A stretch of 64,000 nt of DNA from a phage: the sequence record NC_135728.1, one strand, 5' to 3'. The notes below the pieces were generated by a model. It saw only the letters and a list, made by a program, of their open reading frames with translations. It made no database searches and had not been told where the DNA came from. A program made the translations under genes and the position numbers. This document shows, piece after piece, positions 24,120-42,508 of this stretch (position 1 is the first letter of the stretch; each line of letters starts with the position of its first letter).

Positions 24120-24356
24120 ATGATAGGTGTCTGTGTAAAAGCTAACAGATGGTTTACATTCGGTAAGGATTACGAAATTATCTTTCATTCGGACAGAGCC
24201 ACAACAGTAGAAAGCGATGATGGGTGCTACTGGTTCGTTAGTTACCATGGTGATGGGTATTATAGATCTACTGATTCCAGAGGGGAAGAAGCTGTTTTCT
24301 TAGATAGAGCTTATTGTGGGCCTGAATATCCCTACCTCAAAGAGGATAAGGAATGA
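24120..24356 (+). CDS. hypothetical protein
   Basis: GAGAGG RBS. Confidence 0.5.
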   Translation: MIGVCVKANRWFTFGKDYEIIFHSDRATTVESDDGCYWFVSYHGDGYYRSTDSRGEEAVFLDRAYCGPEYPYLKEDKE

Positions 24357-25381: not shown

Positions 25382-26170
25382 ATGGGTCGAGCTAAAGAAA
25401 CAAAACGCATGCGTGATGAAGCTAGAGAGGCTCGCAAATCTGATCGCCTGCGTAAGGCTGCTGAGAAATTTGCTGACGAACGAGAGCACACAGCTCCAGC
25501 TCTCCGACCAATGAATAAAAAGCAGCAAAAGTATCTTGATTATCTAGGGTCACGTAAGATTATTATTGTAAACGGTGTGTTTGGATCCGGTAAGACATTC
25601 ATGGCATCTGCATATGCAGGTGATCTTCTGCGTAAGAACGAGATTGATAAGATCATTGTTGCACGTCCTTACGTTCAGACAGGAAAGACTTCAGGATTTA
25701 AACCTGGAAATGCAATGCAGAAACTGTGGCCCTATCTTAGAAGCATGATGGACACGATTTGTCGTCGTGTTGGCAAAGGTGCTTTTGCCGCAATGCTGGG
25801 AGACGGTCAGAACAGCCGTATCGAGATTTGTGAGGTTGAAAGCATTCGTGGTCGTAGTTTCGATGAGCGATGCTTTGTCCTGATTGACGAGGCACAGCAA
25901 ACTAACCCTGAAGAAATGTTGTCAATTATCACAAGGATCTCTGATCAGGCCACTCTTGTAATTATGGGAGATAATAGTCAACGTGACATCCCTGGTAAAT
26001 CTGGCCTTGCATGGGTGACAGATTTCTTTACTCGTCATCCAGATCCTGAGGTTGGAATGATCAGCTTTGATAGTCCAGACGATGTCGTTCGTTCCGGGTT
26101 GGGTCGTCAGATTGCACTCAATCTTATTGAGGATCGTGCAAATCATATTTGGACCCCTGTTTCCGAGTAA
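25382..26170 (+). CDS. phoH: PhoH-like ATPase
   Basis: Walker A GVFGSGKTFMA, Walker B LIDEAQQ; AAGGAG RBS. Confidence 0.85.
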   Translation: MGRAKETKRMRDEAREARKSDRLRKAAEKFADEREHTAPALRPMNKKQQKYLDYLGSRKIIIVNGVFGSGKTFMASAYAGDLLRKNEIDKIIVARPYVQTGKTSGFKPGNAMQKLWPYLRSMMDTICRRVGKGAFAAMLGDGQNSRIEICEVESIRGRSFDERCFVLIDEAQQTNPEEMLSIITRISDQATLVIMGDNSQRDIPGKSGLAWVTDFFTRHPDPEVGMISFDSPDDVVRSGLGRQIALNLIEDRANHIWTPVSE

Positions 26171-26214: not shown

Positions 26215-26243
26215 TTGACAAATAGGTAAGCTTTAGATATTAT
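26215..26243 (+). promoter_or_regulatory. sigma70-like promoter TTGACA-17-TATTAT
   Basis: Preceded by GGGTGG-TTATT-CCACCC hairpin after phoH. Confidence 0.45.
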
Positions 26244-26268: not shown

Positions 26269-26580
26269 ATGGCTACAGTACAAGAGAAACTGAATAAAAT
26301 ATACTGCCTGTTTGTCTATAACGGCGAGACAATTCTGGCATATAAAGGATCCAAGAATGTATGGATCAAGGACAGTGGTGGTAATATAATCAACTTAGCG
26401 TTGCTACGTGAGCGCCGACACAGATTCTTTATCGAGTCTCGGATTATTGAAAGCAGCACCTGCTACAGAACAGGCGATAAAGTAATTGTTGACAATGATA
26501 CGTGGTATGTGGTAGACTGGCAATCATTGAGCTGTGATGCTTCTGACAATCGTAAGTATTCTATAGTGATTGCTAAATAA
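26269..26580 (+). CDS. hypothetical protein
   Basis: AAGGAGA RBS. Confidence 0.5.
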   Translation: MATVQEKLNKIYCLFVYNGETILAYKGSKNVWIKDSGGNIINLALLRERRHRFFIESRIIESSTCYRTGDKVIVDNDTWYVVDWQSLSCDASDNRKYSIVIAK

Positions 26581-26639: not shown

Positions 26640-27689
26640 ATGAATTTAACACCTCGCAGCACCATGGTACACGGCATGAAAGAAAAACAGAACGGTTTCG
26701 AACCTATGAGTAATAAAATGTTTGGTATGCCAGGTGGTATTATGGAAACATACAGCTACCCAACACCAGTTGTTGACCACGTTCTTTATATCGACGATTT
26801 GGAAGACTTACAAGATCATATGTCTCGTCTACAGACGATCCGTATGGCTCAGCCGGAAGAAAGCATTCGGGTGATCATCAATAGCCCTGGGGGTTGCGTG
26901 CACATTGCAATGGCTTATCTGCAGGCATTCCGTGAGTCTCAGGCAAGCGTTGTTGCACATGCTGAAGGGATGTGCTGCTCTGCGGGAACAATCTTATGGC
27001 TGGGTTGCAAAGAGCGCACTGTTGCTCCGGACACAGAGTTTATGTTCCACTACTACCAAGGTGGCACCTATGGTAACGGTGTGAACATGAATACCCAGAT
27101 CAACTACTGGAAGAAACGTTTTGAACGCCTGATCGAAAAATACTACGGTGGGGTGTTAACAGAAGATGAGATCGCATCCATCACAGCTGGCGGTGAAGTG
27201 TGGTTAGATGGAGAAGAGCTGGCATCTAGAACTGGTGCTATCATTCTGGACGATGAAAACATTCAGCGCATTCAGAATGGACAGAAACCGAAAAAGCTTT
27301 TGGCAAAAAGTGATGAAGAAGGTGTGCTAGGCGAAGCAGGCCTGCCAGAGATTCACCAATGCACATCTCTGGACGAGCTGGTTCATGCTGTTGAGTCTGC
27401 AAAAGCAAATGGTATGAAAGATGATGTTCACACTGTGTTCCTGAATCTGCAGATGGAAAGTGGCGAGACAGTCAGGATCGCCCTGGGTGAAATTACTTCA
27501 GAAGATCTGCAGCGATTCTCTGTCGTCGAACTTCAGGATATTCTGTCTCAATTGAAGACTACTCTGAACGGCGGTGAAGAGGTTAAGGTGAAAGACAAGA
27601 CCCGCAAGCGTCTGATGGACAATATCATTAAAACAGCAAAAGAGCTCAATGAAAAAATCCTGGGTTCAGGAATTGTCGAAGAAGCTTAA
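26640..27689 (+). CDS. ClpP-like (S14-type) serine peptidase domain protein with C-terminal extension
   Basis: INSPGGCVHIAMAYLQAF and GMCCSAGTIL resemble the ClpP core and nucleophile region. Confidence 0.5.
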   Translation: MNLTPRSTMVHGMKEKQNGFEPMSNKMFGMPGGIMETYSYPTPVVDHVLYIDDLEDLQDHMSRLQTIRMAQPEESIRVIINSPGGCVHIAMAYLQAFRESQASVVAHAEGMCCSAGTILWLGCKERTVAPDTEFMFHYYQGGTYGNGVNMNTQINYWKKRFERLIEKYYGGVLTEDEIASITAGGEVWLDGEELASRTGAIILDDENIQRIQNGQKPKKLLAKSDEEGVLGEAGLPEIHQCTSLDELVHAVESAKANGMKDDVHTVFLNLQMESGETVRIALGEITSEDLQRFSVVELQDILSQLKTTLNGGEEVKVKDKTRKRLMDNIIKTAKELNEKILGSGIVEEA

Positions 27690-27702
27690 ACATTAATTCT
27701 AA

Positions 27703-27725
27703 AGCCCTCTTCGGAGGGCTTTTAT
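27703..27725 (+). terminator. rho-independent terminator
   Basis: AGCCCTC-TTCG-GAGGGCT followed by TTTT. Confidence 0.7.
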
Positions 27726-27740
27726 GATCTGGAGATTTGC

Positions 27741-28274
27741 ATGACTTGTGCTAGAAAACCTGATGAACAACGTAACGCATACGATGAGTATGTGACACCG
27801 GAGTGGTGTGCAGAAGGGCTGTATGACCTTATTCCGTTCCCAGAGGACTGGACCTACTTAGAGCCTTGCAGGAATAGTGCCTCAGGTGTGTTCTACTCCC
27901 GTATGCCGTTAGGATCTGCATGGGGAGAAATCCAAGAAGGTGTTGACTATCTGAATACAGAATACAACCATGTTGACTGTATTATCACCAACCCACCATA
28001 CAGTCTGGCCCGTGAGTTTGTAGACAAGGCGTTGAAAGATGCTGACGTAGTTATTATGCTTTTGCGTCTTAATTTTCTGGAAAGCAAAGCCAGATTTGAA
28101 TGGTGGCTTGATAATGCACCTACCACTGTGATCACAATATCTAAGCGTCCATCATTTCAATCAAATGGTAGAACTGACGGGCAAGCATATGCATATTTTG
28201 TGTGGGATAAGAAAAACCGTTTAGACTTGCCGCCATTTATGTGGTTGGCACCCCCAGAGGTAGACCTGAAATGA
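27741..28274 (+). CDS. small Dam-like N6-adenine DNA methyltransferase
   Basis: CIITNPPYS (NPPY motif IV) in a 177 aa protein. Confidence 0.65.
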   Translation: MTCARKPDEQRNAYDEYVTPEWCAEGLYDLIPFPEDWTYLEPCRNSASGVFYSRMPLGSAWGEIQEGVDYLNTEYNHVDCIITNPPYSLAREFVDKALKDADVVIMLLRLNFLESKARFEWWLDNAPTTVITISKRPSFQSNGRTDGQAYAYFVWDKKNRLDLPPFMWLAPPEVDLK

Positions 28275-30495: not shown

Positions 30496-30699
30496 TTGAA
30501 AAAGGAGACAGCAATGGCAAAAAATAAATCTTTAGAGCAGGCTGAAAACCTTCTCCACGAGCTAGTAAAGGAGTGGAAAGTTGAATACTCAGATTTTAAT
30601 GCACGAGAGGGTGAAGATTATTGGCCTACGGAGCGCTCAGAGGGCGAATGGTATCAAGATTTTATAGAGTGGTTATATCAGACGTGTGATGAGGGGTGA
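30496..30699 (+). CDS. hypothetical protein
   Basis: AAGGAGA RBS. Confidence 0.5.
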   Translation: MKKETAMAKNKSLEQAENLLHELVKEWKVEYSDFNAREGEDYWPTERSEGEWYQDFIEWLYQTCDEG

Positions 30700-30701
30700 C
30701 G

Positions 30702-31157
30702 ATGTTTGTTAAATATGTAAAAACGTGCCTCAACAGTCTTGGCAGAGAGCATTGGTACACCTTACTTGAAAAAGGAGAAATTTTAACAAAATCTGGAAAG
30801 ATAACTTTGATACCCTTGGACGATAAAGACCCGTCACTCCTTGTCATAGATGATTACGTTACAGGTGTGTCGTACGAGGTCTCTGTGGAGAGGTTAATAC
30901 GCAGATCTGGAGGTCCTTATGACCGAAGAGAGTATGTTTTCGATTCTGTTACAGAGAAGGAAGATCCGTCTCTAATGTTCAGGATGGTAATCAGAGATAT
31001 GAGGTCATCTATAGACAGGATCGTAAAGGACATTAAGGAGCCTTTTAGGGTAAAAGTTAAGAAGTTTTTTGATTCTAAGATTAACATACTTGCCGTTGTG
31101 CTAGGCGTAATTCAACTTCTGTTAATTTTGCACTATCTTGAACTGTTGTTTAAGTAG
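30702..31157 (+). CDS. hypothetical protein with C-terminal TM helix
   Basis: C-terminal ILAVVLGVIQLLLILHYL. Confidence 0.5.
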   Translation: MFVKYVKTCLNSLGREHWYTLLEKGEILTKSGKITLIPLDDKDPSLLVIDDYVTGVSYEVSVERLIRRSGGPYDRREYVFDSVTEKEDPSLMFRMVIRDMRSSIDRIVKDIKEPFRVKVKKFFDSKINILAVVLGVIQLLLILHYLELLFK

Positions 31158-39997: not shown

Positions 39998-40346
39998 CAC
40001 ACAATTAGTTGCCCGGCTAAAGTGCTGGGAGCACCCATAACACATCTTTCAACTAAATTTCCTACCACCACAATCACTTACCTCCCACACATGACTGTTT
40101 GCTTGTTTAGTGAGCAGTCATGCCTTGACATTCTTGCCTATCCTGATAAAATTAAGTTCTTCTCTTTTCTTTTACCGAGTAATTCGGGTTTTCTGTTCTC
40201 TTCGGTTTGAAGGGGTATGGAGATACACCTGAGTGAACAGGGTGAACAACCGAACCATTGGCTATGGCATTAGCATGGCGAAGCGGACGGGTGACGAAAG
40301 AGGGGCCGGAGGACACCAGTCACTGCCATATGATATATGGGTGATA

Positions 40347-40865
40347 ACCTGAAGAGTCTGAATAAGTGTTTAAGTACCAGTCAGAGGAAAAGGTGAATGG
40401 TAGCCGAAGGGGGAGGGGGGTTACCTGCTTCTGTAAACATGCATCTGAAATACTACTTTAGATAACCTGAACCTGCCTTTCTGACAAATATTCCCTATTA
40501 AACTTGAATTATTTATAGAAAATACCACAACACCACTTAAGTCTTTGATTTTACACACAAATCTTACAGATATTAAACCTCTCTATTTAACATACCTGTA
40601 ACATATACTATACTCCACCTGTCTGATCAATTTCCCCAACTACATCCCCATATTTTCCCTGTCTGTACTACCCCTGCCCCGCCGGGAGTCCCGTCATATC
40701 TGGCTTTCCAGCAAATATCACACCCACAAATATCATCACCTGAAGAGGGTTTCATCCCATAATACATGCCTTACCTGAAGAGCGCTTCATATACCCCGTA
40801 AATTTTTTAATTGACCCCCTCCCCGCCGCCGGAGGGGTTGGCTTTTCCCACACAAACCTGAAGAG
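40347..40865. repeat. dispersed direct repeats of ACCTGAAGAG (4 copies)
   Basis: Copies at about 40347, 40738, 40773, 40856; ACCTGAAC variant at about 40463. Confidence 0.5.
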
Positions 40866-41425
40866 TCAGCCAGAAATATCTGAACAGCCAGTTATACCAC
40901 GATTTTGTGCTTGTCCTACAGGAGTGCTTCCCTGTCAGGAGCCGGTAGCGACTGGAGTGCTGCCAGGCGGACGAAATGGGAATACTTCTCATTCTTATAA
41001 CAATTCTCAAATATCGAGGCAGTGAGGCAAATTAATAGGTGAGGCCGTTCACACAGTGGCACAACATTTGCAACCTATCTTGTGGGATTGAATGAGAATA
41101 CCTATCATTGTGAGAACTGTTATCATTACGGGCAATTTAACATAATACCCATTATGCGCACCACTGGCGATACATACAGGGATTTATAACATGAGTTACT
41201 GTTTACGTATATAACAATTATATTTCTTACTATTTGTGTGGGATATAGTTAGCAGCCGATAGATTAGATATTGACCTGCAGACTTCCAACCGTCTAGACG
41301 TCTAAACGCCCACACAACAAGGTTTATACATACATTACTGAATGTAAACAGGGCCGCAAAAATGCTACCATACAAGATTGTAAATTTTTCATGCAGCACT
41401 TGACAAAGAGGAGAAAAACTTGTCT

Positions 41426-41505
41426 GACACTTTAGACACAATAGTGACATAATATGACACCTTTGACACACTGGACACATTAAACATAATTGACATGCCT
41501 GACTG
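41426..41505. repeat. iteron-like array of GACA(C/T) repeats phased every 9-11 bp
   Basis: Eight copies: GACAC, GACACA, GACAT, GACAC, GACACA, GACACA, GACAT, GACT. Confidence 0.6.
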
Positions 41506-41540
41506 TTTACATAGCTAACTATTTACTAAAAAATGATAAG

Positions 41541-41852
41541 CCATGCCATTCGTTTGCATGATAAAGATTAGCAAGTTAATAATCTTTCGCTGGCTATGCC
41601 AGGTGACCTTTGGTCACCCCTTCGGGTGTTTCTATGACATAATATAAAAGCAGGGCAACTATTAGCAGATCATAGTTGCCTTGCTTGTTAACACCCTTGA
41701 GACGAAGGCTTTGCCTGAGTTTATGTCATGATTAACTAAATACAAGGCAACTATGATCTGATTAATAGTTTGCAGACAAACTATCACGGGGGTGATGGTT
41801 ACTGCTTTTATATTATGTCGCGACTCCGTCGCGCCATGCCATTCGTTTGCAT
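41541..41852. repeat. nested repeat complex: 19-bp direct repeat, 18-bp inverted repeat and internal palindromes
   Basis: CCATGCCATTCGTTTGCAT at 41541 and 41834; GACATAATATAAAAGCAG (41636) inverted at 41802; GGTGACC-TTT-GGTCACC; GGCAACTAT-N9-ATAGTTGCC. Confidence 0.6.
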
Positions 41853-42477
41853 AGTTGCCTTATTGTTACGAATAAAACAATTGCATTGTTAATGATTTCT
41901 TATCTTTCTCTTAGTCATCTAATGATTCCAGTCAGTCTAGTAATGTACAGTAAACATTAGACGACTAAAGATTTCCCTGTTTATGATAACTCACCGTGAT
42001 AATTTCAGGCTGTTTACTAAAAATGTTGACACCTAAGCTGATTTATGTTATGCAGTTTACACGAATAATTATTTTATGCAGGTATTGACTATTCCGTTAT
42101 TCTATGGTTGGAATAAATACTTAGCAGACTATAGAATGGTGAGCGTACGTAAATTCTGAGATCTGGCGGCTATAGTTATACTCGATTTTTCACGTAGAAC
42201 ACGCTTTTGTGAGTGTGTAAGTGTATGACTTATAAAGATTTTTAGTTGTTGACAAGATATTGAAGATGTGCATCAGGTTAAATTTTGTGCAATAGCGGCA
42301 TTACGTGCAATTCTGAGAGAGAAAACGGGTAAAAATGGCCCTGCTACCACAAGATGAAAGATTATGCAATAGTTATTTTTATATGTATATTTGTACAGTA
42401 GGGTTAATTGCTGGCTTGTTGATTATTCCACTTGCCAGGTGGGGCCGTTTGTGGTAGGAGAAATACAGACAAAAAGA

Positions 42478-42508
42478 AAGGGGCCTTTTAAAGCCCCTGA
42501 TAGTTTAG
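42478..42508 (-). terminator. rho-independent terminator of the leftward block
   Basis: On minus strand GGGGC-loop-GCCCC followed by TTTCTTTTT, just past gene 42517-42936. Confidence 0.6.

Follow-up and report, generated by a model that had tools for sequence, protein, structure and literature searches.

The phage gene at positions 26640-27689 of a 64,000-nucleotide stretch of sequence record NC_135728.1 (the whole of this stretch is called the window here) encodes a ClpP-like protein, and we propose that this protein is a ClpP-fold serine peptidase that is not part of the virion, acts independently of ATPases in the infected cell and relies on its C-terminal domain for recognition, a reading to which we give about an even chance.

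26640-27689, plus strand: ClpP-like peptidase gene, ATG start, 349 amino acids

The DNA of the locus is 96-98% identical to that of rV5-like coliphages of the genus Vequintavirus, and judged by this identity the source genome is a Vequintavirus (rV5-like). The ClpP-like protein is orthologous to rV5 gp117/ORF122 (YP_002003619), from which it differs at 12 of 349 amino acids; it is 99.7% identical to its counterpart in phage Mangalyan and is present at an identity of at least 95% in 118 phage records. The gene is already known, with a ClpP-like annotation in more than 100 phage records, and belongs to the core genes of the Vequintavirus phages. From the first rV5 genome onwards, gp117 has been labeled 'ClpP ATP-dependent protease subunit', a label that is homology-based only, and there is no substantive difference between gp117 and the gene described here. 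Compared with the rV5 ortholog, the ratio of nonsynonymous to synonymous substitution rates (dN/dS) is 0.066 overall, 0.055 in the core and 0.09 in the C-terminal extension, and dN is 0 in the N-terminal tail. With a ratio this low, and with tail, core and extension each constrained, the open reading frame (ORF) is not a chance one; the gene is real and under strong purifying selection.

An AlphaFold2 model of the protein was built on a 19-sequence family alignment, and the confidence of each region is given below as the predicted local distance difference test (pLDDT) score.

26640-26768, plus strand: N-terminal tail, residues 1-43, predicted disordered, pLDDT <50
26769-27284, plus strand: ClpP-fold peptidase core, residues 44-215, with Pfam, PDB and Foldseek matches, pLDDT ~90
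27285-27368, plus strand: linker, residues 216-243, variable and gapped in the alignment; residues 222-241 predicted disordered, pLDDT <50
27369-27689, plus strand: lineage-specific C-terminal alpha/beta domain, residues 244-349, and the stop codon
26979-26981, 27048-27050 and 27195-27197, plus strand: codons of the catalytic positions Ser114, His137 and Glu186, respectively

An earlier annotation of this DNA, made from the letters alone (the original prediction), had described a 349-residue protein with a ClpP-like core, two motifs within it and a C-terminal extension of about 150 residues. Both motifs are present, INSPGGCVHIAMAYLQAF at residues 80-97 and GMCCSAGTIL at residues 110-119, and Ser114 aligns with the nucleophile Ser97 of Escherichia coli ClpP. 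The extension also stands, at a length of about 134 residues rather than 150, as the core ends near residue 215 and is followed by the linker and a folded domain; the 43-residue N-terminal tail had gone unmentioned. The folded part of the C-terminal domain covers residues 244-342 (pLDDT 70-88). No relatives of this domain of about 106 residues were detectable outside the lineage, and in a tblastn survey of standalone ClpP-like genes of phages the long C-terminal domain was limited to the Vequintavirinae group. The N-terminal tail contains the motifs N-x-F-G-x-P-G and Y-S-Y-P, in which F28, G29, Y40 and P41 are conserved in the family alignment, and ClpP-type prohead proteases have a comparable aromatic motif ahead of strand 1. 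The F-G-hydrophobic motif of the tail was also considered as a mimic of the ClpX IGF loop that would dock onto host ClpP; this idea was rejected because a comparable motif occurs in ordinary ClpP-type prohead proteases.

The core is matched by Pfam CLP_protease (PF00574, S14) with E=1.4e-12 (48.3 bits versus a cut-off of 20.2), and by PHROG 1827 with E=2.3e-40 over the core only, while PHROG 5410 'ATP-dependent protease' matches residues 24-344 with E=1.1e-154. Foldseek gives nothing but solved ClpP structures in its top 50 (target template modeling score ~0.7, identity to E. coli ClpP ~20%), and the PDB sequence matches are ClpP subunits only. Using an E. coli ClpP reference sequence identical to PDB 3MT6 and both hidden Markov model-based and L-INS-i alignments, we found that Ser114 corresponds to Ser97 and His137 to His122, and that both are invariant in 19/19 family sequences; the oxyanion motif NSPGG and the substrate strand YQGGxxGxGxN are likewise invariant in sequences down to 40% identity. 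The general base is an invariant His, as in S14 enzymes, and not part of a Ser-Lys dyad as in S49. The position of Asp171, third in the triad, is Glu186 in this protein and Gln in most relatives, and the oligomerization-sensor position Arg170 is an invariant Gly185. That Gln and the missing Arg sensor are the two features in favor of a catalytically compromised protein acting as a structural factor or an inhibitor; the invariance of Ser114, His137, NSPGG and the YQGGxxGxGxN strand, the strong purifying selection, and the presence of Glu at the third triad position in phage ClpP-type prohead proteases as well all speak against it, and we consider this alternative very unlikely.

The resemblance to cellular ClpP (MEROPS S14; PDB 1TYF) extends over the alpha/beta core with a full-length handle, the Ser/His pair, NSPGG and the Gly-rich substrate strand. 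Unlike cellular ClpP, the phage protein lacks helix A and the axial-loop sequence and carries the 43-residue disordered N-terminal tail and the 134-residue C-terminal extension. A further difference concerns the IGF/IGL docking pocket, which comprises L23, L48, F49, A52, Y60, Y62, F82, I90, M92, F112, L114 and L189 (ClpAP cryo-electron microscopy, 10.1101/820209). Seven of these 12 positions could be aligned reliably (L48, F49 and A52 are among those that could not), and not one of the seven is conserved: Y60R, F82E, I90H, M92E and F112T (R77, E99, H107, E109 and T127 of the phage protein) are invariant in 19/19 sequences, so that five positions are invariantly polar or charged, and among the 19 family members Y62 is replaced by Ile/Val and L114 by Ala/Ser. 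The NCBIfam models of cellular ClpP (TIGR00493, PRK00277 and others) score 22-40 bits versus cut-offs of 228-361, and the top NCBIfam family, NF045542 'head maturation protease, ClpP-related', reaches 61.2 bits versus a cut-off of 120 (E=1e-16). The S14/S49 profile search that the original prediction had proposed as a check came out in favor of the broad Pfam S14 family, but the protein stays below the cut-offs of all curated ClpP models and of the curated model for head maturation; the Pfam matches with E of 1 or less did not include Peptidase_S49 (SppA type, lambda gpC). As the docking pocket is lost and the curated ClpP cut-offs are missed, the sequence gives no support to the 'ATP-dependent' in the product name, and the ClpP-like protein probably works without Clp ATPases. 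The fold, Ser/His, NSPGG and full-length handle, with which the database annotations concur, would also suit a true ClpP subunit that pairs with host ClpX/ClpA or mixes into host ClpP rings and so redirects ATP-dependent proteolysis. However, none of the alignable pocket residues is kept, Arg170 and Asp171 are replaced by Gly185 and Glu/Gln, and the curated ClpP scores are far under their cut-offs; mixed rings are unlikely because identity to E. coli ClpP is ~20%. We regard a true ClpP subunit as highly improbable.

A ClpP-fold protease without an ATPase pocket may also serve in capsid maturation, and the possibility was examined that the ClpP-like protein is a prohead protease, main or auxiliary, that has been displaced from the head module and whose C-terminal extension is scaffold-like or capsid-targeting. 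Its best curated matches are indeed head-maturation families, NF045542 as given above and PHROGs 1684, 94 and 2976 with E=5e-23 to 2e-15. The proteases of NF045542 (e.g., Gordonia phage Gambino gp4, Bacillus phage MY192, Vibrio phage K312), the closest curated family, have the same fold as the ClpP-like protein, a Ser/His pair with Asp/Glu as the third residue and an aromatic motif near the N-terminus; like it, they have no ATPase pocket, and many of them bear C-terminal extensions. The layout of the ClpP-like protein, a core plus an extension, resembles that of in-module ClpP-type prohead proteases. A virion protein gene, moreover, is located 3 kb downstream. The genes of NF045542 proteases, however, sit between the portal and major capsid protein (MCP) genes and encode the sole head protease, whereas the ClpP-like gene lies outside the head module of an XkdF-bearing genome. 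The YGLxD motif is present in NF045542 prohead and in cellular forms and absent from the ClpP-like protein, which belongs to a standalone clade without it.

The order of the rV5 head operon is TerL gp065, portal gp064, gp063, gp062, decoration gp061 and MCP gp060. This operon is on the opposite strand, starts ~3 kb past the left edge of the window and lies 30-37 kb from the ClpP-like gene, which has a promoter-terminator unit of its own. rV5 gp063 (NC_011041 55883-56455) contains a near-complete Pfam Peptidase_S78_2/XkdF domain (64.6 bits versus a cut-off of 24), and because of this domain and of its position directly after the portal gene it is likely the capsid protease. Please note that RefSeq misnames gp063 as 'DNA methyltransferase' and that PHROG 1530 bears the same misleading name. 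Orthologs of gp063 are annotated as 'prohead protease' beside the portal in BASEL phages, as 'XkdF-like serine protease' in Mangalyan and as 'capsid protease' in ICP1, and ICP1 Gp125 has been treated as the capsid protease (PMC9040626, PMC7567579). The next gene product, gp062, is a scaffold candidate, with just 2 peptides in rV5 virions. With an XkdF-type protease in its canonical place, followed by the scaffold candidate, decoration protein and MCP, the head module is complete even when the ClpP-like gene is left out of account. Two proteases arranged in this way are also found in ICP1 and Otagovirus-like phages, and the ICP1 homolog belongs to a block of nucleotide-metabolism genes that reach their peak earlier than the capsid operon. 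Homologs in KVP40-like (T4-type) and T5-like phages sit among replication and nucleotide-metabolism genes, and these families own prohead proteases, T4 gp21 and T5 pb11. Mass spectrometry of rV5 virions identified 19 proteins, and locus 122, that of the ClpP-like protein, is not one of them; the virion protein table was checked by a whole-word search for the locus number, since weights are computed differently between the tables and matching by molecular weight gave no clear answer.

It is well supported, then, that the ClpP-like protein is not a conventional prohead protease, and a displaced one is in our estimate unlikely. This agrees with the original prediction, which had placed the peptidase among replication and metabolism genes and doubted such a role. 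The targets that it had suggested instead, host or regulatory proteins, are hypothetical. Structural genes do lie just outside the window, and the ClpP-like gene is no part of their order. The accompanying claim that no capsid or scaffold genes are nearby is right as far as the head genes of the window are concerned, but not for virion proteins at large: 30696-31157, 3 kb downstream, is the rV5 ORF133 ortholog, assigned to PHROG 7821 'virion structural protein'. rV5 ORF133 is abundant in virion mass spectrometry, and its gene lies among small nonstructural genes, far from the morphogenesis module. At 24120-24356 there is also a 78-residue ORF, the rV5 gp111 ortholog, which RefSeq calls 'putative minor capsid protein' via a hypothetical protein of phage Rtp; this label looks unreliable because the gene is between nrdD and nrdG.

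Standalone ClpP-like genes coding for 180-300 residues were found by tblastn in many large lytic phages, outside the head modules; that of VBP32 adjoins structural genes. In a comparison of 12 sequences, all phage ClpP-fold proteins, standalone as well as prohead, keep Ser/His and have lost the pocket and Arg170, and YGLxD is found in the prohead and cellular forms and is absent from the standalone clade. The standalone proteins of other large lytic phages form PHROG 1827, with ICP1 gp211, Pakpunavirus phiMK gp127, Otagovirus-like ventosus, KVP40-like D491s, Sugarlandvirus and Barbavirus as members. These proteins are like the ClpP-like protein in core fold, Ser/His, pocket loss and a C-terminal EE-x-x-x-R without YGLxD, and their genes, as here, are found in regions of early or nucleotide-metabolism genes, in many cases with phoH directly ahead; they differ from it in having 180-300 residues without the Vequintavirus C-terminal domain and, in most cases, in retaining Asp at the third triad position.

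The recurrence of phoH was followed in a hand sample of 14 phage lineages. A PhoH-like gene is present within 1.5 kb upstream on the same strand in nine of the 14, a proportion whose statistics ignore phylogeny and rest on a small sample. The nine are Vequintavirus, Seunavirus, ICP1, ventosus, Barbavirus, the Vibrio phages 193E37-1, F98 and HNL01 (in which an unannotated PhoH gene was recognized with E=1e-92), and an Acinetobacter phage; no PhoH was found nearby in Pakpunavirus, two T5-like genera, one KVP40-like and one N4-like phage. rV5, PVP-SE1 and Barbavirus all have the gene order PhoH, ClpP-like protein, DNA methyltransferase, and in ventosus the PhoH and ClpP-like genes overlap by 4 bp. 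The linkage may reflect inherited synteny or functional coupling. A linkage kept in nine lineages although the ClpP-like proteins are merely 20-35% identical, together with the overlap in ventosus, could point to a phage-specific ATPase-peptidase pair, or a co-regulated module, formed by the peptidase and the neighboring PhoH-like ATPase. On the other hand, PhoH, a P-loop ATPase of the PhoH/RecA-like type that is related to RNA helicases, is not a known unfoldase, five lineages have the ClpP-like gene without PhoH nearby, and inherited synteny could explain the linkage since the nine positives are all of myovirus type, 80-150 kb, and share nrd and ligase neighbors. Such a pair is, to our judgment, distinctly unlikely.

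The transcription unit in which the ClpP-like gene is placed, and the genes on its two sides, are as follows.

25382-26170, plus strand: PhoH-like P-loop ATPase gene, rV5 gp115 ortholog, PHROG 170 with E=3.8e-75
26215-26243, plus strand: sigma70-type promoter TTGACA-17-TATTAT, equal to rV5 P121, 11 of 12 consensus positions
26269-26580, plus strand: small ORF of 103 residues, rV5 gp116 ortholog, first gene of the unit, PHROG 5456 with E=6.6e-39
27701-27725, plus strand: rho-independent terminator, equal to rV5 t122, AAAGCCCTC-TTCG-GAGGGCTTT-TAT (sequence and fold)
27741-28274, plus strand: DNA methyltransferase gene, the downstream neighbor, PHROG 799 with E=8e-67

The neighbors match those of rV5, with nrdG, PhoH and the small ORF upstream and the methyltransferase after, and P121 and t122 are common to both. 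P121 is listed in Table S4 of the rV5 paper (PMC3606486) and annotated in NC_011041. The small ORF product is 33% identical to PVP-SE1 gp149, which is likewise encoded upstream of the PVP-SE1 ClpP-like gene, and it has no match in Pfam, NCBIfam or PADLOC; the PADLOC defense-system search gave no match for the ClpP-like peptidase either. The PhoH-like protein matches NCBIfam PhoH with E=3.6e-40, under the cut-off. The strong terminator that had been noted after the gene proved to be identical to t122, with a free energy of -14.9 kcal/mol (Table S4, PMC3606486); its 27704-27725 part reads GCCCTC-TTCG-GAGGGC followed by TTTTAT, and from 27701 three further A-U pairs are added. A simple consensus terminator scan missed it, and it was found by reading and folding the sequence and by checking Table S4. 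The succession of promoter, small ORF, peptidase gene and terminator makes this a discrete unit; in rV5, P121 and t122 bracket ORF121-122, and the late-promoter motif set sits in the morphogenesis module (PMC3606486). Neither a transcriptome nor a procapsid proteome was found for any Vequintavirus. A late-type motif with one mismatch, TGGTAATATA, is present at 26379-26388, inside the small ORF and 250 nt before the start codon of the ClpP-like gene. If up to one mismatch is allowed, the window has 14 copies of the rV5 'late promoter' core TGGTAAAATA versus 6.0 +/- 2.3 expected, and 12 of the 14 are co-oriented with the local genes, though there is no morphogenesis operon in the window.

Away from this unit, the window contains an ORF-poor region of ~2.3 kb at 40200-42500, where the transcription arms converge and the GC skew turns, and which matches the unannotated rV5 gap at 104.0-106.6 kb; neither a tRNA nor an Rfam match was found in it. 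A cluster of AGGCAACTAT in both orientations is located at 41540-41868, with two perfect 18-nt inverted repeats and one perfect 20-nt direct repeat, and could be an iteron- or origin-like element. In addition, ~20 records named 'Campylobacter phage' with Campylobacter jejuni as the host (e.g., MG065674 A140 and MG065661 C9) are 96-100% identical to rV5-like coliphages at the examined loci; the C. jejuni host assignments of these records look doubtful, or the records may reflect contamination.

Returning to the proposal of a non-virion peptidase that is independent of ATPases, the following sequence of events is envisaged. ORF121-122 would be transcribed from the sigma70-type promoter as a two-gene unit ending at the intrinsic terminator, within the nucleotide-metabolism and replication arm, and capsid maturation would be left to the XkdF/S78-type protease. 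The ClpP-like protein probably forms a ring-shaped, self-compartmentalized oligomer, as other ClpP-fold enzymes do, and probably needs no AAA+ unfoldase, its substrates in the cytoplasm of the infected cell being peptides, unfolded chains or otherwise flexible molecules. Recognition of partners or substrates would be supplied by the lineage-specific C-terminal domain, and perhaps by the conserved N-terminal tail too. Oligomeric state, activity and substrates are all inferred here, as no experiment on the ClpP-like protein or on any standalone phage homolog was found in the searchable literature.

Several observations weigh against this proposal, and it is not our intention to pass over them. 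By profile score the closest curated family is 'head maturation protease, ClpP-related', and sequence alone would permit a capsid role, since the docking pocket is missing from prohead proteases of the ClpP type, too. That the protein was not seen in virions is weak evidence, given that a prohead protease does not usually stay in the capsid and that the XkdF protease was likewise undetected in rV5 virions. The TGGTAATATA copy at 26379-26388 may allow late transcription of the gene. Given the Gln as third triad residue in most relatives, it is not certain that all members of the family are fully competent catalysts. Finally, the searchable literature, outside of which most subscription journals fall, held no experimental study of any standalone phage homolog.

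For the whole standalone phage clade, 'ATP-dependent Clp protease proteolytic subunit' is probably a misleading name. rV5-, ICP1- and Otagovirus-like phages carry two unrelated proteases, of which only the XkdF-type one is in the head operon, and a widespread, strongly conserved viral peptidase is thus left without an assigned role. Its recurrent site just after phoH ties together two of the commonest orphan genes of large lytic phages, and a joint study of the two is suggested. Genetic tests are practical, as rV5-like phages serve in the biocontrol of E. coli O157 and are represented in the BASEL collection. A wider view, which we put forward as speculative and think unlikely as a whole, is that the standalone phage ClpP-fold peptidases would be a distinct class of viral proteases working without Clp ATPases in the cytoplasm of the infected cell, placed in a conserved PhoH-ATPase/peptidase module of large lytic phages and processing or destroying specific host or phage proteins, with the Vequintavirus C-terminal domain as a new recognition fold. 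If this were true, host takeover, resource recycling or counter-defense would be examples of the roles that these standalone peptidases may play.

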